Below are positions 27,254 to 62,805 of a DNA stretch of 64,000 nt, piece after piece (the stretch's first letter is position 1; each line of letters opens with the position of its first letter). Where the stretch lies: NCBI RefSeq assembly GCF_055900595.2, contig NZ_CM148325.1, one strand, 5' to 3'. Made by a program: the position numbers and the translations under genes. The notes below the pieces were generated by a model. That model made no database searches. It saw only the letters and a program-made list of their open reading frames with translations, and was not told the origin of the DNA.

Positions 27254-29835
<2,582 letters not shown>

Positions 29836-31933: not shown

Positions 31934-34186
31934 ATGGCAAAAAACACATCTTGCGGTGTCCAACTGCGTATTCGTGGCAAAGTGCAGGGCGTCGGTTTTC
32001 GTCCCTTTGTCTGGCAACTGGCACAGCAATTAAATCTTCACGGCGATGTCTGTAATGACGGCGATGGCGTAGAAGTCCGGCTGCTGGAAGACCCGAAAAC
32101 GTTTCTTGTTCAATTGCATCAGCACTGCCCGCCGCTGGCGCGTATTGATAGCGTCGAATGTGAGCCGTTTATCTGGATGCAGCCGCCCACTGAGTTCACC
32201 ATCCGCCAGAGCGCGGGCGGCGTCATGAATACGCAAATTGTTCCCGATGCCGCAACTTGCCCTGCCTGTCTTGCCGAAATGAATACCCCAGGCGAACGGC
32301 GTTATCGTTATCCGTTTATCAACTGTACCCATTGCGGCCCGCGTTTCACCATTATTCGCGCGATGCCTTACGACCGTCCATTTACCGTGATGGCGGCGTT
32401 TCCGCTATGTCCGGCCTGCGATAAAGAATATCGCGACCCGCTCGATCGTCGCTTCCACGCCCAGCCGGTGGCCTGCCCGGAGTGTGGCCCACATCTTGAA
32501 TGGCTAAGTCCTGGTGAACATGCGAAACAAGATGCGGCATTACAGGCGGCTATCGCTCAGTTAAAAATGGGCAACATTGTCGCTATCAAAGGGATTGGCG
32601 GATTTCATCTCGCCTGCGATGCGCGTAACAGTAACGCGGTGGCGACACTACGGGCGAGCAAACATCGCCCGGCGAAACCGCTGGCGGTTATGTTGCCAAC
32701 GGCAGAAGGTTTACCCGACGCTGCCCGTCAGTTGCTCACCACGCCCGCCGCGCCGATTGTTCTGGTGGATAAAATATATGTTCCGGAACTTTGTGACGAT
32801 ATCGCCCCTGGCCTTAACGAAGTCGGGGTGATGTTGCCTGCGAATCCGCTCCAGCATTTGCTGTTACAGGAACTGCAATGCCCGCTGGTGATGACCTCCG
32901 GCAACCTGAGCGGTAAACCACCGGCTATCAGCAACGAACAGGCGCTGGAGGATTTGCAGGACATTGCCGACGGATTCTTGATTCATAACCGCGACATCGT
33001 GCAGCGGATGGATGATTCAGTGGTGCGCGAAAGTGGCGAAATGTTGCGCCGCTCGCGGGGGTATGTACCGGATGCGCTGGCTTTGCCTCCGGGCTTTAAA
33101 AATATTCCTCCTGTGCTGTGTCTCGGTGCGGATCTGAAAAATACCTTCTGTCTGGTGCGTGGTGAACAGGCGGTGTTGAGTCAACATTTGGGCGATTTAA
33201 GTGACGATGGCATTCAGATGCAGTGGCGCGAAGCGTTGCGCCTGATGCAAAACATCTACGATTTTACTCCACAGTTTGTGGTGCATGATGCGCATCCGGG
33301 CTATGTCTCCAGCCAGTGGGCGCGTGAGATGAATCTGCCGACGCAAACGGTGCTGCATCACCATGCCCACGCGGCGGCGTGTCTGGCAGAACATCACTGG
33401 CCGCTGGATGGCAGTGATGTCATTGCTTTGACGCTCGACGGTATTGGTATGGGCGAAAACGGCGCTTTATGGGGCGGCGAGTGCTTGCGGGTGAACTATC
33501 GCGAATGCCAGCACCTGGGCGGCTTGCCTGCGGTGGCGCTTCCGGGGGGCGATCTTGCGGCAAAGCAGCCGTGGCGAAACCTGCTGGCGCAGTGCCTGCG
33601 CTTTGTGCCGGAGTGGCAGAATTACCCTGAAACGGTAAGTGTGCAACAGCAAAACTGGAGCGTGCTGGCGCGGGCCATTGAGCGTGGAATTAACGCGCCG
33701 CTGGCGTCATCGTGTGGGCGTTTGTTCGATGCTGTGGCGGCGGCACTGGGCTGTGCGCCAGCCACGTTAAGTTATGAAGGTGAAGCGGCTTGTGCCCTCG
33801 AGGCGCTGGCGGCTTCGTGCCAGGGAGTAACGCATCCGGTGACGATGCCGCTGGTGGACAATCAACTGGATCTCGCCACTTTCTGGCAGCAGTGGCTGAA
33901 CTGGCAGGCACCGGTTAATCAACGCGCGTGGGCATTTCATGATGCGCTGGCGCAGGGTTTTGCCGCGTTGATGCGTGAGCAGGCCACGATGCGTGGTATC
34001 ACTACGCTGGTATTTAGCGGCGGGGTTATTCATAACCGTTTGCTGCGTGCACGTCTGGCGCATTATCTTGCTGACTTTACGTTGCTCTTCCCGCAGAGTT
34101 TACCTGCGGGGGATGGCGGGTTGTCTCTGGGGCAGGGGGTTATTGCTGCGGCCCGTTGGGTGGCGGGTGAAGCCCAGAACGGATAA
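31934..34186 (+). CDS. hypF: carbamoyltransferase HypF (hydrogenase maturation)
   Basis: ORF 31862..34186 trimmed to [27 protein letters not shown]... (750 aa); acylphosphatase, Zn-finger CxxC pairs, YrdC and Kae1-like domains. Confidence 0.93.
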
Positions 34187-50711: not shown

Positions 50712-50804
50712 GGTGAGGTGGCCGAGAGGCTGAAGGCGCTCCCCTGCTAAGGGAGTATGCGGTCAAAAGCTGCATCCGGGGTTCGAATCCCCGCCTCACC
50801 GCCA
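50712..50804 (+). tRNA. serV: tRNA-Ser (anticodon GCU)
   Basis: 93 nt with long variable arm, anticodon loop CU-GCU-AA, 3' CCA encoded. Confidence 0.93.
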
Positions 50805-50807
50805 TTT

Positions 50808-50884
50808 GCATCCGTAGCTCAGCTGGATAGAGTACTCGGCTACGAACCGAGCGGTCGGAGGTTCGAATCCTCCCGGATGCACCA
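50808..50884 (+). tRNA. argV: tRNA-Arg (anticodon ACG), copy 1
   Basis: 77 nt GCATCCGTAGCTCAGCTGGATAGAGTACTCGGCTACGAACCGAG...CACCA; 3 nt after serV. Confidence 0.93.
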
Positions 50885-50947
50885 TATTCTACGAAATCTT
50901 CAGCAATGAAGGTGTCGAAGAGGTGGCGGTACTAACCGCAAGCACCA

Positions 50948-51019
50948 GGGAGGATAACGTTGCTTTAGCAACGGCCCGAAGGGCGAGCCGTAAGGCGAGT
51001 AATCCTCCCGGATGCACCA
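50948..51019 (+). other. tRNA-like structured spacer element ending in a copy of the tRNA-Arg 3' end
   Basis: 72 nt: stem GGGAGGA...TCCTCCC, internal hairpins, terminal aatcctcccggatgcacca identical to tRNA-Arg 3' 19 nt. Confidence 0.45.
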
Positions 51020-51083
51020 TCTCTTACTTGATACGGCTTTAGTAGCGGTATCAAAAAATCTGCAGTAAAGTAAGTTTCCCGAT

Positions 51084-51160
51084 GCATCCGTAGCTCAGCT
51101 GGATAGAGTACTCGGCTACGAACCGAGCGGTCGGAGGTTCGAATCCTCCCGGATGCACCA
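51084..51160 (+). tRNA. argY: tRNA-Arg (anticodon ACG), copy 2
   Basis: 77 nt, identical to copy 1. Confidence 0.92.
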
Positions 51161-51262
51161 TATTCTCCGTAATCATCAGTGATGATGGTTAAGATGGATT
51201 TTCTTATTTGATATGGCTTTAGTAGCGGTATCAATATCAGCAGTAAAATAAGTTTTCCCGAT

Positions 51263-51339
51263 GCATCCGTAGCTCAGCTGGATAGAGTACTCGGCTACGA
51301 ACCGAGCGGTCGGAGGTTCGAATCCTCCCGGATGCACCA
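51263..51339 (+). tRNA. argZ: tRNA-Arg (anticodon ACG), copy 3
   Basis: 77 nt, identical to copy 1. Confidence 0.92.
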
Positions 51340-51549
51340 TATTCTCCGTAACCTTCAGCAATGAACGTATCGAAGAGGTAGCGGTACTAACCGCAGGCAC
51401 CATCTCCTCCAAAAAATCCCCTTCAAAAATATTTCATTTCTAAATAACTATTTTATCCATTTCCTGAATATTCTTCTCCTTCGCCATCAGCGACAAAATC
51501 AAGCAATTACGCTAAAGTAGCGTCATATTTTTCGACTTGCGAGAAGACC

Positions 51550-52116
51550 ATGTACGAGCGTTATGCAGGTTTAATTTTTGATATGGATGGCACAATCCTG
51601 GATACGGAGCCTACGCACCGTAAAGCGTGGCGCGAAGTATTAGGGCACTACGGTCTTCAGTACGATGTTCAGTCGATGATTGCGCTTAATGGCTCGCCCA
51701 CGTGGCGCATTGCTCAGGCGATTATTGAACTGAATCAGGCCGATCTCGACCCGCATGCGCTGGCGCGTGAAAAAACAGAAGCAGTCAGAAGCATGTTACT
51801 CGATAGCGTCGAACCACTCCCCCTTGTTGAAGTGGTGAAAAGCTGGCACGGACGTCGACCAATGGCTGTAGGAACGGGGAGTGAAAGCGCCATCGCTGAG
51901 GCACTGCTAACGCACCTGGGATTACGCCGTTATTTTGACGCCGTCGTTGCTGCCGATCACGTCAAACATCATAAACCTGCGCCAGACACATTTTTGTTGT
52001 GCGCGCAGCGTATGGGCGTGCAACCAACGCAGTGTGTGGTCTTTGAAGATGCTGATTTCGGTATTCAGGCGGCCCGTGCTGCAGGCATGGACGCTGTGGA
52101 TGTTCGCTTGCTGTGA
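51550..52116 (+). CDS. yqaB: HAD-family sugar phosphatase YqaB
   Basis: 188 aa with HAD motif I FDMDGTILDT. Confidence 0.9.
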   Translation: MYERYAGLIFDMDGTILDTEPTHRKAWREVLGHYGLQYDVQSMIALNGSPTWRIAQAIIELNQADLDPHALAREKTEAVRSMLLDSVEPLPLVEVVKSWHGRRPMAVGTGSESAIAEALLTHLGLRRYFDAVVAADHVKHHKPAPDTFLLCAQRMGVQPTQCVVFEDADFGIQAARAAGMDAVDVRLL

Positions 52117-52541
52117 GTGAAGCTTTATCGCTTTTCTCGTTGTTTGCCAGTAGTTTCCTCAGCGCTACACTATTACCCGGTAATTCCGAAGTCGTGCTGG
52201 TTGCAATGTTGCTTTCCGGGGTAAGTCATCCCTAGGTTTTAGTGTTAACAGCAATAATGGGTAATAGCCTTGGAGGGTTAACTAACGTTATTCTTGGGCG
52301 TTTCTTTCCATTGCGTAAAACATCGCGCTGGCAAGAGAAAGCTACTGGTTGGCTGAAACGCTATGGTGCAGTCACGCTATTATTAAGCTGGATGCCCGTG
52401 GTTGGCGATTTACTGTGTCTGTTAGCGGGATGGATGCGCATCTCCTGGGGGCCAGTAATCTTTTTTTTGTGTCTTGGTAAAGCGTTACGTTATGTTGCAG
52501 TTGCAGCAGCGACCGTTCAGGGCATGATATGGTGGCACTAA
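52113..52541 (+). pseudogene. yqaA: DedA-family inner membrane protein YqaA interrupted by in-frame amber (TAG at 52233-52235)
   Basis: GTG at 52113 opens VSEALSLFSLFASSFLSATLLPGNSEVVLVAMLLSGVSHP-TAG-VLVLTAIMGNSLGG..., continuing in the same frame into ORF 52242..52541. Confidence 0.75.
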
Positions 52542-52586
52542 TTGTAGGCCTGCACACATGGTCACCATTACAGTTATGCTAATTAA

Positions 52587-54170
<1,584 letters not shown>

Positions 54171-54175
54171 CAGAA

Positions 54176-54250
54176 AAGAAAAAGGCCACTCGTGAGTGGC
54201 CAAAATTTCATCTCTGAATTCAGGGATGATGATAACAAATGCGCGTCTTT
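54176..54250 (-). ncRNA. micA: small regulatory RNA MicA (SraD)
   Basis: Minus strand reads GAAAGACGCGCATTTGTTATCATCATCCCTGAATTCAGAGATGAAATTTTGGCCACTCACGAGTGGCCTTTTT; between gshA and luxS, divergent from luxS. Confidence 0.85.
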
Positions 54251-54319
54251 CATATACTCAGACTCGCCTGGGAAGAAAGAGTTCAGAAAATTTTTAAAAA
54301 AATTACCGGAGGTGGCTAA

Positions 54320-54835
54320 ATGCCGTTGTTAGATAGCTTCACAGTCGATCATACCCGGATGGAAGCGCCTGCAGTTCGGGTGGCGAAAACAATGAACACC
54401 CCGCATGGCGACGCAATCATCGTGTTCGATCTGCGCTTCTGCGTGCCGAACAAAGAAGTGATGCCAGAAAGAGGGATCCATACCCTGGAGCACCTGTTTG
54501 CTGGTTTTATGCGTAACCATCTTAACGGTAATGGCGTAGAGATTATCGATATCTCGCCAATGGGCTGCCGCACCGGTTTTTATATGAGTCTGATTGGTAC
54601 GCCAGATGAGCAGCGTGTCGCTAATGCCTGGAAAGCGGCAATGGAAGACGTGCTGAAAGTGCAGGATCAGAATCAGATCCCGGAACTGAACGTCTACCAG
54701 TGTGGCACTTACCAGATGCATTCGTTGCAGGAAGCGCAGGATATTGCGCGTAGCATTCTGGAGCGCGATGTACGCATTAACAGTAATGAAGAACTGGCAC
54801 TGCCAAAAGAGAAGTTGCAGGAATTGCACATCTAG
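54320..54835 (+). CDS. luxS: S-ribosylhomocysteine lyase LuxS
   Basis: 171 aa; HTLEHL metal-binding motif. Confidence 0.96.
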
Positions 54836-54852
54836 TCAGTTTAAGCAGAAGA

Positions 54853-54884
54853 GGCCGGGCTGGTGAAATCACCGCCCGGCTTTT
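54853..54884 (+). terminator. luxS rho-independent terminator
   Basis: ggccgggctggtgaaatcaccgcccggc + TTTTATT; convergent gene stop codon abuts it. Confidence 0.7.
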
Positions 54885-54885
54885 A

Positions 54886-55998
54886 TTACCTGTCAGTCAC
54901 CCGATATTCCACGCTATGTGCTTCATCAGGTTGAGGAACTTCCAGCCTTGAGGCCATCCGCATCACGACCGCTTCAGGAACGGCATACTCGCGCCTGGCA
55001 TTTTGCTGCTTCCATTGCGCCCACGGTACTTCCAGATAAACGATTTTTACTCGTGCACCGTAAGCCGTAAATAGACTGATGAGCTGGCTACGCAACTGGC
55101 GGGTAATGTTCGTTGCATTCCAGATGAACGGCTTCTTCTGGCGTAAAAAAACGCGCGCTTCTTCTTTTGCCTGTTGCACAATACGCCCGGTGGCGGTTTT
55201 GTCGTCCGGACTGGCATTGATTCGCCGCCGCATATCATCAAGGCTGATAACGTTCACTCTCTGGCACTGTTCACTGATAAAGCGATCTTTGCCCATACCC
55301 GGTAAACCACACAGCAAAATAACCTCAAAAGATTCAGCCTCCCAGGGAACAAAATCAGGAGAACTTTGTTCATGGGTCAGGTAATGCCAGCGTGCGGAAT
55401 CCGAAGCGAATGAACGCACTTTTCCCCAGCATTGTTGCTCCTGGCAAAATAGCTCGAACAGATCGATGCGTTCCAGCATTGATTGCTGATCATGACAATG
55501 GCGACCAAGCAGATCGGCACGAGCAAGCAAAGCGAGCAGACGTGTGTCGATACGCATTGCAGCCGTGAGCAGCAAACGCTCCGGTTCCGGACGTTCCAGT
55601 AACCATAGCGGTAACCCATGCAGACGCACCAGTGCAACAATTTGCTCGCGTAGCACGAACGGCGTCGGGATATCGCGCCATAAAATTTGTCGGGCCGTCA
55701 ATTCCCCCCGACGAGCATGACCAGGGGACTGAATACGTCCGTTTTCCTGCACGGTAGTACTGCGCTTTTCAACGTCATGCAATAACGCCGCCGCCCATAA
55801 AATTTCCTGCTGCTGAGCGGGGAGTTGCTGAAACTCAGCCATCGCAACGAGTGCGTTCAGCACCATTTCAGTATGCACACCAACGTCGCCTTCACCATGA
55901 TGCTCCGGGTCTTGCGGCGTGTTATGCATATCCTCAACCCAGCTAAAACGCTGGCGTAGCGTCGACCAGCGTTTGTCGTCGGTAAGTTGCCAAATCAT
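54886..55998 (-). CDS. bifunctional HD-domain phosphoesterase / P-loop polynucleotide kinase-like protein (HD-Pnk type)
   Basis: 370 aa; N-terminal HD motifs ([18 protein letters not shown]), C-terminal P-loop-like GLPGMGKD; start overlaps upstream ligase stop (ATGA). Confidence 0.75.
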
Positions 55999-56702
55999 GA
56001 CTGTTCTCCATAAGCGAACTCATGGGCCATCCGCGCCCGTCGCCAGTGGCGTTTCCAGTGCTCGGTGGTTTTGACATGATTTTTGCGCACATACTTGAAG
56101 ACGTTATGCGAAAAGTCAGCGACGGAAAACGCATCACGATTCCGGCTGACAATGCCTTCCAGCGTACAGGGTTGCCCGGTTTGTGTATCCCAGGGATCGA
56201 ACGCGCCGCGCGCATTGGTCAGCGCCAGAAAATCACGTTGCCAGCTTTTTTCATCATTCCCCGGCTGCGGGCCGGAGATTTCGGGAACGCAGGGGAAATC
56301 AAACAGAGCGGCGTAAAACTGCACCTCTTCCCAGCTCAGCCACATATCCTGGCAGCGAACGGCAAACAGGTAAAAGTCCTGTTCCAGGGCGCGGTATTCA
56401 ATGGAATGAACGGCGTAGAGATTTTCACCAAACAGTTCCAGATCGCCGAGATCGTTTTTCAGCAGTTGCCAACGCTGGCGAATTTTATAAGTCCATGCCG
56501 ACTGCGTAGGCGCAGCATGGGAACGGGCAAACACGCCGTAGCGGTTAAGGCAGTTATTTTCGCCGTCGAGTTTTTCTGTATGCACCAATTGCGTGATGGC
56601 CTGTAAATCCTGCCAGTAATCGGCATTAATACGGTCATCGCTGGTGGTGCCAGGGGAGAAAGGATAATGCCAGGTTCTCCCGTATTTCCGTTGGGTATTC
56701 AT
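55995..56702 (-). CDS. ATP-dependent polynucleotide (RNA/DNA) ligase-like nucleotidyltransferase
   Basis: 235 aa; motif I KLDG, motif IV-like LEGIV, motif V-like FKYVRK; first gene of two-gene operon. Confidence 0.75.
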
Positions 56703-56754
56703 AATAATCCATTATTTTGTGTGTAATAAATGTACGCCCGCGAGGGTGCGAGTT

Positions 56755-56922
56755 ATGGGGTTAAAAGAAAAATGTGAGTATCACCCGCGAAAGCGAGGGC
56801 GAAGGAAAAAGAGAATTAACAACCTGAGCGAATGCTCAGAACCGGTTAATGGTGAATGGAAGAGTTTGGGGCGGCGAAAAGATACACCGTTTGAGATGAT
56901 AAAACAACCGTTTACAGAATGA
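56755..56922 (+). CDS. possible small basic protein (55 aa), speculative
   Basis: ATG preceded by GAGGG 8 nt upstream; product MGLKEKCEYHPRKRGRRKKRINNLSECSEP...; divergent from ligase operon; no homology support. Confidence 0.25.
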   Translation: MGLKEKCEYHPRKRGRRKKRINNLSECSEPVNGEWKSLGRRKDTPFEMIKQPFTE

Positions 56923-56924
56923 GC

Positions 56925-56952
56925 AAATAAAAAGGGAGCCGCAGCTCCCTTT
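56925..56952 (-). terminator. emrB rho-independent terminator
   Basis: Minus strand: gggagctgcggctccc followed by TTTTT directly after emrB stop. Confidence 0.7.
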
Positions 56953-56959
56953 GACAACC

Positions 56960-58498
56960 TTAGTGCGCACCGCCTCCGCCGCCACCTGCGCCAAATGGCG
57001 GTTTAGCAAACCACACCAGCCCCAGCAGGACGAGGAATATCCCGGCTGACATCCAGAAGATCTCATTGGCGGAAATAATCAGCCCCTGATTGGTGATCTG
57101 CTGGGCAATCCAGCCTGATGCCTGTTGTTGCGTCATCCCCAGCCCTTCCAGTTGGCTGTACATCGCCTGAGCGTTCGGGTTAAACGGGTTTACCGACTCG
57201 GTTAACTGTGCGTGGTGCATCGACTCGCGGTTAGTCCACATGGTGGTGGTGATGGATGTGCCGATAGACCCCGCCAGCGTTCGCGTAAAGTTAGAGAGGC
57301 TCGATGCCGCCGCCAGTCGTTCCGGTGGCAAACCAGACAGCGTAATGGTGGTCAGCGGCATAAAGAAGCAGGCCACTGCGAAGCCCTGGATAAACTGCGG
57401 CCAGGCCGACGCACCAAAATCCATACCCGGTTCAAAGGTATAGGCACGCCAGTAGAAGCAGACGGCATACATAATAAAGCTGAAGGTTACCAGCCGCCGC
57501 ATATCCAGTTTATGCGCGAAGCGGCCGATAATCGGCGACAGGATCACCGGAATAATCCCTACCGGCGCAGAGGCCAAACCTGCCCAGGTCGCCGTGTAAC
57601 CGTAGACCTCCTGCAACAACTGCGGCAGCAGAACAATCGCGCCGAAGTAGAGCATATACGCGAGGCTGATACACAAGCAGCCGATGGTGAAGTTGCGCGA
57701 CTTAAACAACGACAGATCGACTATCGGGTTATCGTCGGTCAGCTCCCAGACAATCAGGAAGCAGATAGCCACCACCGCCACCACGGTGAGGATGATTATT
57801 TCCTGCGATGAGAACCAGTCCAGCTCTTTACCGCGGTCGAGCATAATCTGCAGGCTGCCGATACCAATCACCAGCAGTGCCAGCCCCACGGCATCAATCC
57901 GCCGCCGTTCGGTGCGGGTTTCGCGTCCGCGCAGGGTTTGCAGTGTCATCAACACCACCGCCACGCCAATCGGCACGTTGATGAAGAATATCCAGCCCCA
58001 GTGGTAATTATCGCTGATATAACCGCCGAGGATCGGGCCGCAAATTGGCGCGACAATCACCGTCATCGACCACAACGCCAGCGCGATCGAGCGTTTGGCT
58101 GGCGGGTAGTTATTCAGCAATAGACTTTGCGAAAGCGGGATCAATGGCCCGGCGACAATCCCCTGAATCACGCGGAAGAAGATCAGCATATTCAGGCTGC
58201 TGGAGACACCACATGCCCACGATGCAATAGCGAAGGCGATGGTCGACCAGAGGAACAGCTTCACTTCCCCAACACGTTTTGCCAGCCAGCCGGTAAGCGG
58301 GATCGAGATGGCATTCGCCACCCCGAAAGAAGTGATTACCCACGTTCCCTGGCTGAGCGATGAGCCCAGATTCCCGGCGATAGTGGGGATCGCCACGTTA
58401 GCAATGGTGGAGTCCAGCACCTGCATGAATGTCGCTAGTGACAGCGCAATCGTCATAATGACCAGTTGCGCGCCTTCCAGCGGTTTTTGCTGTTGCAT
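56960..58498 (-). CDS. emrB: multidrug efflux MFS transporter EmrB
   Basis: ORF trimmed to MQQQKPLEGAQLVIMTIALSLATFM... (512 aa). Confidence 0.94.
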   Translation of the reverse strand: MQQQKPLEGAQLVIMTIALSLATFMQVLDSTIANVAIPTIAGNLGSSLSQGTWVITSFGVANAISIPLTGWLAKRVGEVKLFLWSTIAFAIASWACGVSSSLNMLIFFRVIQGIVAGPLIPLSQSLLLNNYPPAKRSIALALWSMTVIVAPICGPILGGYISDNYHWGWIFFINVPIGVAVVLMTLQTLRGRETRTERRRIDAVGLALLVIGIGSLQIMLDRGKELDWFSSQEIIILTVVAVVAICFLIVWELTDDNPIVDLSLFKSRNFTIGCLCISLAYMLYFGAIVLLPQLLQEVYGYTATWAGLASAPVGIIPVILSPIIGRFAHKLDMRRLVTFSFIMYAVCFYWRAYTFEPGMDFGASAWPQFIQGFAVACFFMPLTTITLSGLPPERLAAASSLSNFTRTLAGSIGTSITTTMWTNRESMHHAQLTESVNPFNPNAQAMYSQLEGLGMTQQQASGWIAQQITNQGLIISANEIFWMSAGIFLVLLGLVWFAKPPFGAGGGGGGAH

Positions 58499-58514
58499 TA
58501 CACGCACCTCTGGA

Positions 58515-59687
58515 TTAGCCAGCGTTAGCTTTTACGATATCGTCGATCAGTTTATTGACAGGAGCCAGGCTTATTTCACGCGCGGTGCTCACCGCTACCG
58601 GCGTAGAACGTACTTTATTTGCCAGTACCTGACCGTCACGGTTAGTGGTATTGACGCTCACCAGCGTGGATAAACCGATACGCAGCGGGTATTGTTCCAG
58701 CTGTTTTTGGTCCAGTTCAATACGTACAGGCAGACGCTGAACAACTTTTATCCAGTTACCAGTGGCATTTTGCGCCGGAAGCAGCGAGAACGCGCTACCT
58801 GTCCCCATATCCAGACCAACCACTTTACCGGTGTATTTCACATCATCGCCGTAAATATCCGTGGTGATGGTGACCGGCTGACCGATGCGCATATTGGCAA
58901 TCTGCGTCTCTTTAAAGTTGGCATCCACCCACATATTGGTGGCTGGAACGACCGCCATCAGCGGCGTCGTTGGGCTAATTTGCGCCCCAGGCTGTACTGC
59001 TCGGCGGGAGACATAACCGGTCATCGGACTGACAATACGGGTACGCTCCAGCGCCAGCCAGGCGTTACGTACTTCGGTGGCAGCCTGTTGCACGGCAGGC
59101 TGATCTTCCAGTTTAGTCCCCAGAATCATCGCCTGATTGGCATTGTATTGTTGAATGGCGACATCCAGTTGCGCCTGGGCACTGGTCACCGCGTCGCGGG
59201 CGTGTTGCAGCTCTTCGCGACCAATCAGGTTGGCATTGCCCAGCGGCACACGGCGGTTGTAGTCGCTTTGTGCTTTCGCGAGGGCGATTTTTTGCACCTC
59301 AATATTCGCCTGCAACTGTTTGCTGTTAATCATCAGCTGGTGGGTTTGGCGCACGCTGGAAGCCAGTGCCGTTTTGGCTTTTTCAAACGCCTGGCGAGCA
59401 TCTGTCGGGTCGAGAGTGACCAGCACATCGCCTTCTTTTACAAAATCGGTGTTATCGGCCCAGACTTTCGTCACGCTGCCAGACACCTGAGACATAATTT
59501 GAATCTGATTCCCTGCCACGTATGCGTCATCGGTTTCTTCGAAATGACGCAGTACTAAAAACCAATAAATCCCTATCGCTACGGCAATAATTATAAAGAG
59601 CAAGGTGAGAAGCAGGAGCAGACGCTTACGTTTGCCGCTCTTCTTTACCGGTTGCTGCGGGGTTTGAGTCTCCGCATTTGCGCTCAT
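58515..59687 (-). CDS. emrA: multidrug efflux periplasmic adaptor EmrA
   Basis: ORF trimmed to MSANAETQTPQQPVKK... (390 aa). Confidence 0.94.
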   Translation of the reverse strand: MSANAETQTPQQPVKKSGKRKRLLLLLTLLFIIIAVAIGIYWFLVLRHFEETDDAYVAGNQIQIMSQVSGSVTKVWADNTDFVKEGDVLVTLDPTDARQAFEKAKTALASSVRQTHQLMINSKQLQANIEVQKIALAKAQSDYNRRVPLGNANLIGREELQHARDAVTSAQAQLDVAIQQYNANQAMILGTKLEDQPAVQQAATEVRNAWLALERTRIVSPMTGYVSRRAVQPGAQISPTTPLMAVVPATNMWVDANFKETQIANMRIGQPVTITTDIYGDDVKYTGKVVGLDMGTGSAFSLLPAQNATGNWIKVVQRLPVRIELDQKQLEQYPLRIGLSTLVSVNTTNRDGQVLANKVRSTPVAVSTAREISLAPVNKLIDDIVKANAG

Positions 59688-59813
59688 ATTGTTCTCCACG
59701 ATCTTCTTAACTCATCGGCTGAGCCGACCTGCTTGCCAAAAAGGCCAGCATGTTGCGATGCTGGCCAGTCATTTTTTCTGTTATAAATCTGGATTTTTGA
59801 GCGAGATGACGCG

Positions 59814-60344
59814 TTAGCTCATCGCTTCGAGAACCACACCGTCTTGTTCCATCTGGTCGAGACGGGAGAGCAATTTGCGGGTGATTTGCTCGAGCTGATC
59901 TTTTTCTGTTGTGCTGAGCGCGGACCAGAGTTGATGCAGGCAATTATGCTGCGGTGGTAAAACTTCGCGCAAAAACTCGTGACCTTTTTCCGTTAATTGC
60001 AGATGCAGGCAGCGGCGATCGTTATCGCTTTCACGACGTTCGATCCAACCGCGTTTTTCCAGTTCATCGGCAATACGCGTCGCGTTGGTACGGGATGATC
60101 CAAGAGCACAACTCAATTCAGAAGGCTGAATACTGTGGTTTTCCTGAGACTCCAGCGTAATCAACGCCATAAACAACGTCTCGTTAATCCCCTGAGCCTT
60201 CAGCATTTTATTGCGGTTCTCCAGCAGCTTGCTTTGCATATGCATGCAAAGACGGGTCAGAAGGATCTCCTGATAAGGAAAATCTTCGTGGCGGCTGGCG
60301 CGAAATTTTAGCATTTGTTCAATGGGCGTAAACGAACTATCCAT
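59814..60344 (-). CDS. emrR: MarR-family repressor EmrR (MprA)
   Basis: 176 aa, first gene of emrRAB. Confidence 0.94.
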
Positions 60345-60434
60345 TTGGGTATGACCTCATTAATTTCAGCCGATATAGTAACGACAGTGACAAATAAAGT
60401 AAATGTATTGTTTTAGAAAAATGATTCTTGTGGG

Positions 60435-60770
60435 TTATATAATCGCCATCACTTTCCAGGCGAGCCCATAGGCCAGCGCACTAAGCAGTGTTGGGATGAT
60501 AATGCTGCGTGTTTTATAGAAACTGGCACCCAGTACCGCGAAGCCGACCAGAGTGGGCACGAAACGGCGTGTATCGTGCATCACTTCTGGTGCGGTAGAG
60601 ACAACCAGCAGAGCGCATATCGAGGCGATGCCAATGGTGTCGAGCAAAATACCTACCGCGCCACGTTTGGTTGGGCGGGCATTACCCACACGCAGGCGCA
60701 GCGGCAAATAGCGGAAGCAATAATTCGCCGCGCCAACCAGTAACCCAAGCAGCAGAACCTCATAGCTCAT
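60435..60770 (-). CDS. ygaH: L-valine exporter small subunit YgaH
   Basis: 111 aa membrane protein, overlaps ygaZ end. Confidence 0.9.
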
Positions 60771-61497
60771 CGGGCGCTCCTTGCCAGAATGCCTGGATTA
60801 ACGCAGTGAGGCAGCCACAGACAATGCCTGCCAGAATGGCGACGGGAATAGAAAATAGCGTTACGCCTGCAAGGGCACCAACTAACGCTGCGGTAACGCA
60901 AAGAGATTGTTTGCGCTGGAAAGATGCGAGCAGGAAACTCATAAAGAGTGCCGGAAGCATAAAACCTAATGCTGCTTCAACGGCGGGATATCCTTGCAGC
61001 AAGCCGCTGCCGGAGAATGCCCCTATTACCGTACCAAATACCCACGATGACCATGAACTGAAGGCAATGCCGATCATCCAGTTCTCGCTCCAGCGGCGAT
61101 TATTGCGTACCAGTTTTGCGGTTGCGGCGGCAAAAACCTCATCCGTCAGGCCAAACGCCCACAGGGCGGTTTTCGATTTTTGCAGACGCTGAATAATACG
61201 GCTACGCAGTGACGGGCCATACAAAACATGGCGAACATCCATTGCCATGACGGTCAGTGCAGCAACCCACAAACTACTCCCGGCTGCCAGCATCGCGGTA
61301 ATGACGAACTGGCTCGCGCCTGCATAAATGATGCAGGAGAAAAAAACGCTTTCGAGAGGAGAGAATCCCAGACGGGTCGCATTCAGACCGAACGCAAAGG
61401 CCACCGGAATATAACTAATAACAATCGGTAAACTGTCTTTGCATCCTTCCATGAAGGTCGCCGAACCAGGAGCAGGCTGTGGAGTAGGGCTTTCCAT
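60760..61497 (-). CDS. ygaZ: L-valine exporter subunit YgaZ (AzlC family)
   Basis: 245 aa membrane protein. Confidence 0.9.
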
Positions 61498-61620
61498 AGA
61501 GTGTACGCTTAACGATTGTTAATATTATAAATAGACTGAATGAATATCTTAACCTTATCAGACTGATGGGCTTCTTAACACCCTTATAAGTGTAAAGCCA
61601 CGAAAACGGTTGCTGATTGC

Positions 61621-62805
61621 TTAATTTGCGGCTTCCTGACGATGAAAACCTCGCCACCAGACCAGTAAGTTAACCAGGGCAATCGTCGCGCCAGCCAGAC
61701 AAACGCCAGACCAACCGCCATGTTGCCAGGCTGAGGCTGAAATTAGCGAACCGGCGGCACCGCCAATAAAGTAGCTGGTCATGTAACCTGCGGTCAGGCG
61801 ATTACGCGCATCAGGGTGTATTCGATAAATTACCGTCTGGTTAGTGATATGCACGCCCTGCACGGTGAGGTCCAGCACCAGGATGCCGATAATCAAGGCC
61901 AGTACGGAAGTGTGGCCAAACCAGATAGCAAGCCATGAAAGTAACAGCAGCAGCAGACCGAAAGTTGTGGTGTGGTGCGATTTGCCCTTATCGGCAAAAC
62001 CGCCCGCCGGACGAGCGCCCAACGCTCCGGCAGCTCCCGCGAGTCCAAACAGACCAATGACGCCATCGCTGTAGTTAAAAGGTGGAGCGGCGAGCAAAAA
62101 GGCCATTGAGGTCCAGAGAATGCTGAAGTTGGCAAAGGTCAGGCAGCCCAGCAACGCGCGGGTGCGCAGAATTTTATCGCTGATAAACATACTGAAAACG
62201 GAACCTAACAACTGTGGATAGTTGAGGTGGGTTTCTGATTTCATCTGCGGCAGGCCGCGCCATAACGCCAGCGCCATCAGTGCCATTAACACCGAGGCAA
62301 CCCAAAAGACGGTGCGCCAGCCGCCGAGGTTTGCCAGCAACCCGGCAACGGTTCGTGCCAGCAAGATCCCCAACAGCAGCCCGCTCATAATGGTGCCGAC
62401 CACTTTGCCGCGTTTGTCCGGTGAAGCCAGCGTCGCTGCCAGCGGAACCAGAATTTGTGCCACGACCGAGAATAAACCGGTTAATGCCGTACCGAGGATC
62501 ATCATCGCCAGCGACTGACTGCTGGCGGTAATCAACATACCGCCCGCTGCCAGTAAGGTCATCGAGACAATCAGGCGGCGGCGTTCAAACATATCACCGA
62601 GGGGAACAAGAAACAGCAGACCTGCGGCATAGCCCAACTGCGCGGCGGTAACAATAAAGCCCGCCGAACTGGCGGAAAGGGAAAAGTTACGCGCGATGGT
62701 GTCGAGTAATGGCTGGGCGTAATAGTTACTGGCTACCGCCAGACCGGTGGCGATAGACATCAGCACGATCAGTGCCGGGCTAAGCTCATGATTAGGTTTA
62801 GTCAT
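61621..62805 (-). CDS. ygaY: MFS transporter YgaY, intact
   Basis: 394 aa, ~12 TM MFS; uninterrupted frame. Confidence 0.85.
   Translation of the reverse strand: MTKPNHELSPALIVLMSIATGLAVASNYYAQPLLDTIARNFSLSASSAGFIVTAAQLGYAAGLLFLVPLGDMFERRRLIVSMTLLAAGGMLITASSQSLAMMILGTALTGLFSVVAQILVPLAATLASPDKRGKVVGTIMSGLLLGILLARTVAGLLANLGGWRTVFWVASVLMALMALALWRGLPQMKSETHLNYPQLLGSVFSMFISDKILRTRALLGCLTFANFSILWTSMAFLLAAPPFNYSDGVIGLFGLAGAAGALGARPAGGFADKGKSHHTTTFGLLLLLLSWLAIWFGHTSVLALIIGILVLDLTVQGVHITNQTVIYRIHPDARNRLTAGYMTSYFIGGAAGSLISASAWQHGGWSGVCLAGATIALVNLLVWWRGFHRQEAAN

Follow-up and report, generated by a model that had tools for sequence, protein, structure and literature searches.

DedA proteins are encoded eight times over in Escherichia coli, and four of the eight sustain viability alone. 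YqaA is not among these four; it is placed in the separate, uncharacterised COG1238 DedA subfamily, which is not believed to act as an undecaprenyl-phosphate flippase (PMC10127716). For the type of lesion that we describe in this gene, a close parallel is the set of lacI amber hotspots (Coulondre et al. 1978, reviewed in PMC12606429), which are G:C to A:T changes at the second C of CCAGG. The methylation of such sites by Dcm and the repair carried out by Vsr have been described elsewhere (PMC4924334). The same motifs have a second relevance to genome comparison, as a documented error context for nanopore sequencing (PMC8106442). Finally, strain-specific pseudogenes created by a single nonsense SNP form a familiar class, in which a derived early stop codon is found in a dispensable gene at the tip of the tree.

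The stretch of DNA that was analysed, referred to here as the window, comprises 64,000 nucleotides of one strand. Read along the plus strand, the gene order around the locus of interest is serV, three copies of tRNA-Arg(ACG), yqaB, yqaA, gshA, micA, and luxS. The order yqaB-yqaA-gshA is the same in K-12, and on this synteny the window's gene is the ortholog of E. coli yqaA (b2689; YqaA family, DedA superfamily, COG1238), with which it shares the locus, the GTG start, and the length of the frame. It differs from b2689 in having TAG at codon 41, so that normal decoding cannot give the 142-aa protein. The features of the locus are as follows.

51550 to 52116, plus strand: yqaB (HAD phosphatase), intact, from the list of open reading frames (ORFs), with the same annotation in Z0117EC0005, AST85, and K-12.
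52113 to 52541, plus strand: the full yqaA frame for a DedA/VTT-domain protein of the inner membrane, 142 codons and a stop, interrupted at codon 41, from the translation.
52113 to 52235, plus strand: predicted truncated YqaA product of 40 aa with a C-terminal His-Pro, from the ORF list, an AlphaFold model, and conservation.
52233 to 52235, plus strand: premature amber codon TAG in place of the ancestral TGG (Trp41), from the sequence and alignments.
52234, plus strand: the mutated base, A in the window and G in all relatives read, from alignments.
52231 to 52235, both strands: ancestral Dcm site, which read CCTGG (minus strand, CCAGG) until the mutation abolished it, from the sequence.
52242 to 52541, plus strand: possible restart ORF of 99 aa, beginning with a GTG 6 nt past the TAG, from the ORF list.
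52257, plus strand: ATG, an alternative restart that would give 94 aa.
52614 to 54170, plus strand: gshA (glutamate-cysteine ligase), intact, start codon TTG preceded by its own strong Shine-Dalgarno sequence, from the ORF list and annotated in relatives.

The yqaA start codon (GTG, 52113-52115) and the yqaB stop codon (TGA, 52114-52116) overlap in the four bases GTGA, an arrangement that implies translational coupling of the two genes. A first-pass annotation of this DNA had likewise opened yqaA at the GTG that overlaps the yqaB stop, in agreement with the sequence and with the RefSeq annotation of Z0117EC0005, AST85, and K-12 MG1655, in all of which yqaA begins at the same codon, overlaps yqaB likewise, and is equally long. 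The 40 sense codons that precede the TAG encode VSEALSLFSLFASSFLSATLLPGNSEVVLVAMLLSGVSHP, and beyond it the frame continues for 101 more sense codons, ending in WWH before a TAA at 52539-52541; the interruption of yqaA at 52233-52235 and the continuation of the same frame to WWH, both of which that annotation had reported, can be read directly. Apart from codon 41, the window's product is 100% identical to WP_032303635.1, a "YqaA family protein". The restored protein matches Pfam PF09335 (VTT_dom) over residues 29-132 with an i-Evalue of 3.6e-10, in keeping with the DedA-like N-terminus that had been noted, and the 99-aa fragment too has a precomputed PF09335 match. The 142-aa YqaA matches no NCBIfam family at E <= 0.01, and for the 99-aa fragment there is a sub-threshold match to UptA, of 16 bits against a cut-off of 300.

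Aligned base by base with the copies of the nearest relatives, yqaA of the window has one differing position, a G to A change at 52234 that converts TGG to TAG. K-12 carries TGG (Trp41) with the same surroundings, catccctgggtt, in agreement with the first-pass annotation, which gave Trp for K-12 and proposed that a single base would restore this codon. Comparison with the yqaA genes of other strains gave TGG in every relative that was read, with G at 52234 in alignments to Z0117EC0005, 2013C-4282, O157 TR01, AST85, K-12, and the index entries L016-L018 and L022-L024. A megablast search with 52000-52650 recovers the locus from 5,424 of 5,426 complete E. coli genomes, eight of which match at 99.8% and none at 100%. 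The window's yqaA is a pseudogene in that it carries a derived in-frame stop at codon 41 of 142, or 28% of the gene length.

The closest complete genome is that of AST85 (human, Japan), from which the window is separated by 17 SNPs and no small indels over 63,987 aligned bases. Eight of these SNPs are synonymous, seven are missense, one is intergenic, and the last, the G to A change at 52234, is the only nonsense change. The combination of 17 SNPs, the lack of indels, and an intact mutS indicates that the assembly is clean and that the strain is a normal one and not a mutator. A mutator background was considered and rejected, as the window's mutS is identical to the intact copy of AST85 and the SNP load is ordinary.

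We regard it as highly probable that yqaA W41amber is a real and very recent nonsense mutation, private to one isolate of a tight, repeatedly sampled E. coli clone, that it came about through deamination at a Dcm site, and that YqaA function has been lost or severely reduced as a result. The first-pass annotation had left three options standing, a recent nonsense mutation, a sequencing error, or a gene read in a suppressor background. The first of these is the one favored here, the second is unlikely, and nothing that we found supports the third. The event itself is an ordinary pseudogenisation of a well-known kind. When set against other strain-specific nonsense pseudogenes, the window's yqaA has nothing unusual about it, sharing with them the derived early stop, the dispensable gene, and the position at the tip of the tree, although the window also contains an older, lineage-wide lesion in ascF.

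The ancestral sequence CAT CCC TGG GTT holds a CCTGG Dcm site at 52231-52235, which was overlooked in the first-pass annotation. The minus strand of the site reads CCAGG, and its second C lies opposite G52234; the change from G to A on the plus strand corresponds to C to T on the minus strand, a G:C to A:T transition. The window and AST85 have 157 Dcm sites in common, of which 156 are intact in the window and the one at 52231-52235 is the sole one lost. Because methylated C:G pairs make up 0.49% of the bases aligned to AST85, a mutation is unlikely to have fallen on such a pair by chance, and the location of the mutated base within a Dcm methylation site offers an explanation for why G52234 in particular changed. 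The dcm-vsr genes are present at a coverage of at least 80% in 5,358 of the 5,426 complete E. coli genomes (98.7%), a frequency that makes the presence of dcm in the window's strain a strong default.

In the mechanism that we propose, the C5-methylated cytosine opposite G52234 would have deaminated to thymine, and the resulting T:G mismatch would have escaped very-short-patch repair by Vsr and become fixed as A:T, turning TGG into TAG. The resemblance to the lacI amber hotspots of Coulondre, Miller, Farabaugh, and Gilbert (1978) extends to the G:C to A:T change, its position at the second C of CCAGG, and the amber codon that it produces. The two cases differ in strand, since the hotspot codons of lacI change from CAG to TAG on the coding strand, whereas the methylated C of yqaA lies on the non-coding strand and the coding change is TGG to TAG. 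They also differ in kind, lacI offering a measured mutational spectrum and yqaA one natural event. Deamination of 5-methylcytosine at the Dcm site is the most likely origin of yqaA W41amber; this is a cause that we infer, a single event not being provable, and the allele makes a neat natural example of the textbook amber hotspot associated with Dcm methylation.

A second of the 17 SNPs, at 32511 in hypF, also affects a Dcm site at its second C, the one that is methylated; the site reads CCTGG in the window and CATGG in AST85. Here the siblings of the window share its C, and the A of AST85 looks derived. By our own calculation, two of 17 SNPs would fall on 0.49% of positions by chance with a probability of about 0.003. 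The hypF gene holds three SNPs relative to AST85 within 1.3 kb (32511, 32657, and 33829), two of which are missense.

The rarity of the TAG allele was assessed with a 34-nt megablast query centred on the A of 52234, which seeds only on genomes that share this A. The query hit none of the complete E. coli genomes, either with the window's own flanks or with the commonest E. coli flank haplotype; a G control in the commonest haplotype hit 3,232 genomes, so the query works. In an index of 15 billion proteins, the intact allele occurs on about 400 contigs and the 99-aa product that would begin after the stop occurs on one. This single contig comes from the Logan assembly of SRA run SRR27886137, carries the TAG, and is 100% identical to the window from 51322 to 62541 (11,220 bases), with the 99-aa restart ORF called as a gene. 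Upstream of the window's exact GshA allele, other contigs encode a YqaA of 142 aa; in the three of them that were read, position 52234 is G.

On present evidence, the TAG appears to be confined to one isolate and one run of identical sequence, a private status that is based on the exact-protein index and on relatives somewhat more distant than the closest siblings. For those closest siblings (GCA_045890235.1, GCA_037973475.1, GCA_021485535.1, and GCA_965259535.1) the stretches that were compared lie outside yqaA. The window's exact HypF allele recurs in 37 blocks of the index, and siblings that share both this allele and the ascF deletion differ by 0-1 SNP over 7-22 kb. The clone is natural and is not a K-12 derivative: its yqaA region is less than 97% identical to that of most E. 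coli, and its relatives were recovered from humans and a dog.

Some other entries in the index have altered yqaA genes. Those labeled L006-L010, which appear as a 94-aa "truncated YqaA", are truncated by contig ends and are irrelevant here. The 94-aa entry L005 has a different nonsense change (Leu23, TTA to TGA) on an error-rich metagenome scaffold with a frameshift in yqaB and a split gshA, and the damage to these three genes is probably an assembly error; this entry was also set aside. In L023 (GCA_974490495.1), from elsewhere in the lineage, a 1-bp deletion in the T8 run that corresponds to window positions 52461-52468 gives a frameshifted YqaA of 137 aa, which may be real or may be a homopolymer sequencing error.

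Among the alternatives to a genuine mutation and its loss of function, the one that survives best, improbable as we judge it to be, is that position 52234 is really a G and was entered as A in the consensus by mistake, as might happen if 5-methylcytosine at the Dcm site misled a nanopore basecaller. [quoted passage not shown] In addition, the TAG allele is known from one strain only, and the window and SRR27886137 assemblies may come from the same reads, in which case a shared read error would agree in both. However, a motif-driven artefact strikes many sites, and all but one of the 157 Dcm sites are intact. The absence of small indels relative to AST85 extends over about 64 kb, homopolymers included, which is unlike an error-prone long-read consensus. 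The Logan assembly of SRR27886137, which is k-mer based, also gives A at 52234 and matches the window at 100% over 11.2 kb; if it derives from the same library, this agreement excludes an artefact of the assembler or of polishing but not an error shared by the reads. Its contig breaks at the tRNA-Arg repeat, as expected of accurate short reads.

What yqaA has in common with documented nanopore errors at Dcm motifs is the discrepant base inside CCWGG. It differs from them in that one of 157 motifs is affected, no indels occur alongside, and the base is reproduced by a second assembly. There is a practical side to this comparison for genome scans, in which a SNP on a CCWGG site needs to be checked for a nanopore methylation artefact, and a count of the other affected CCWGG sites serves as a quick test that needs no reads.

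If the TAG is taken as a real nonsense mutation, translation coupled to yqaB would stop after 40 residues and release the first re-entrant hairpin alone. The remaining 70% of the DedA/VTT core would not be made, or at most would be made as a separate restart fragment. An AlphaFold model of YqaA built with 95 diverse homologs (pLDDT 95.8, pTM 0.87) reproduces the DedA/VTT core architecture of two re-entrant hairpins with flanking TM helices (as laid out in PMC10127716). Helices 3-19 and 25-35 form the first re-entrant hairpin, helices 72-93 and 95-107 make up another pair, and residues 40-64 and 112-141 form long helices. According to this model, the TAG falls at the start of helix 40-64, just after the first hairpin and the short loop of residues 36-39.

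The 40-aa product holds the first re-entrant hairpin only, including its tip, LLPGNSE, with the invariant E26. This glutamate is found in 95 of 95 homologs, and S25, P22, and T19, likewise encoded ahead of the stop, are conserved in 92 or more of the 95. Downstream of the stop, the invariant residues are N51, G54, P95, G98, D99, G106, and R126. Assignment to COG1238 by the features given for the subfamily (PMC10127716) is borne out by E26 and the other conserved residues of hairpin 1 and by a hairpin-2 motif, P95, G98, and D99, that is not basic. Close homologs of YqaA are 140-142 aa in length. The idea that homologs also start at the internal Met, which the first-pass annotation had raised, does not hold, since all 95 have at least 34 residues N-terminal of column 41. 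By this alignment and model, neither the 40-aa nor the 99-aa piece would contain the conserved core on its own.

Column 41 itself is a tolerant position. Trp41 is invariant in Enterobacteriaceae, but in the wider subfamily Trp occurs in 26 of 95 homologs, and the residues found in the column are W, L, A, V, F, and G. Because Trp41 is variable across the subfamily, the damage would lie in the truncation, not in the missing Trp, and a YqaA produced by read-through with another residue at 41 would probably work. The anatomy of the protein points to a YqaA function that would be lost or severely reduced. Persistence of the 40-aa peptide is unlikely; a C-terminal proline before a stop codon promotes stalling, slow termination, and SsrA tagging. 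Loss of yqaA would be tolerated because the gene encodes one of eight DedA paralogs and is not sufficient alone for viability.

A different outcome would follow if the gene had been split and not destroyed, with ribosomes re-initiating at the GTG of 52242 and the 40-aa hairpin and 99-aa remainder assembling into a functional YqaA. This GTG is in frame only 6 nt after the TAG, and yqaA is itself normally started by a similar coupling to yqaB. The break would also fall, according to the structural model, outside any helix, in the short loop (residues 36-39) that joins two structural elements. Restarts after early nonsense codons in lacI and functional split membrane proteins such as LacY are known precedents. 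Nonetheless, the Shine-Dalgarno interaction at 52242 is predicted at -3.1 kcal/mol, a value reached by 41% of random start triplets in the window, and none of the natural homologs is split or starts at the equivalent of 52242. The TAG allele is private, and there is accordingly no sign that it has been maintained; the 40-aa peptide, with its terminal proline, is likely unstable; and a product restarted at 52242 would be without the first re-entrant hairpin and E26. Termination followed by re-initiation at this GTG, giving a predicted C-terminal fragment, is possible, but a functional two-piece YqaA strikes us as very unlikely. If it were true, it would show a DedA/VTT protein able to accept its first re-entrant hairpin in trans.

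The least probable alternative, to which we give hardly any credence, is that full-length YqaA is still made through a supE- or supF-like amber suppressor tRNA or through high natural read-through: column 41 tolerates many residues, and insertion of Gln or Tyr would probably be functional, but the tRNAs of the window are serV and three Arg(ACG) with no CTA anticodon in 64 kb, supE is carried by 155 of 5,423 complete genomes with all 40 among the matches listed being K-12 laboratory derivatives, the window's clone is natural and non-K-12, the sequence around the stop has no stimulatory RNA structure (z = -0.39 against shuffles), and no homolog has a stop at column 41. Programmed recoding has no better footing, as there is no conserved stop, no recoding signal, and no Rfam family over yqaA; a recoding signal was dropped as a candidate because the RNA fold around the stop is no better than that of shuffled sequence and Rfam has nothing over the gene. 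We infer that the TAG is not read through.

Returning to the preferred reading of W41amber as a recent nonsense mutation that removes YqaA, one might ask about effects on the gene downstream. gshA starts 72 nt after yqaA with its own Shine-Dalgarno sequence of -11 kcal/mol. A promoter scan found no consensus promoter in the spacer between yqaA and gshA, and a scan for promoters and terminators around yqaA gave nothing above shuffled expectation. A small hairpin followed by a T-run at the stop (52218-52232) was considered as a terminator and is regarded as a chance occurrence. Rho-dependent polarity on gshA, predicted from the approximately 300 nt that would go untranslated, is conceivable. We found no literature on a yqaBA-gshA operon or on run SRR27886137.

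For annotation, yqaA in this genome should be flagged as a pseudogene (Trp41 to stop), and neither presented as two small ORFs nor silently "repaired". A natural yqaA-null isolate that stands beside near-identical yqaA+ siblings could also be used in the search for a phenotype of COG1238 DedA proteins.

Several other features of the window were recorded in the course of the comparison. The MicA small RNA lies at 54180-54251 on the minus strand (Rfam RF00078, 83.9 bits), its expected place between gshA and luxS. Between luxS and emrB, at about 54886-56702 on the minus strand, are genes for an AAA_33/KTI12-like ATPase (370 aa) and an RNA_ligase-family protein (235 aa). This gene pair, which is not known from K-12, may be an accessory module for RNA repair or defence. 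In the tRNA array at 50712-51339, tRNA-Arg(ACG) is present in three copies in the window and in AST85 and in four copies in Z0117EC0005, so that the copy number varies. An antisense "tRNA-Arg(tcg)" called by ARAGORN at 50828-50899 overlaps a real tRNA on the plus strand, has no Rfam support, and looks like a false positive. Beside rpoS (window position about 4690), AST85 carries about 0.7 kb of additional sequence with an IS200/IS605 tnpA, which the window is without.

The lesion in ascF, which encodes a PTS EIIBC component for arbutin, salicin, and cellobiose, lies at 28687-29835 on the minus strand. The product is 382 aa in length compared with 485 aa, owing to an in-frame deletion of 309 bp, with its junction near 29098/29099, through which part of the EIIC membrane domain is lost. 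It lies between imperfect direct repeats, GTTTTTCGT...CACCGCC[A/G]GTG. The deletion junction was found in 0 of 5,426 complete genomes, and the deleted 382-aa AscF was found in 109 blocks of the index of draft genomes and metagenomes. A deletion private to this isolate is rejected on the strength of those 109 blocks, and the 382-aa AscF is therefore a marker of the lineage.
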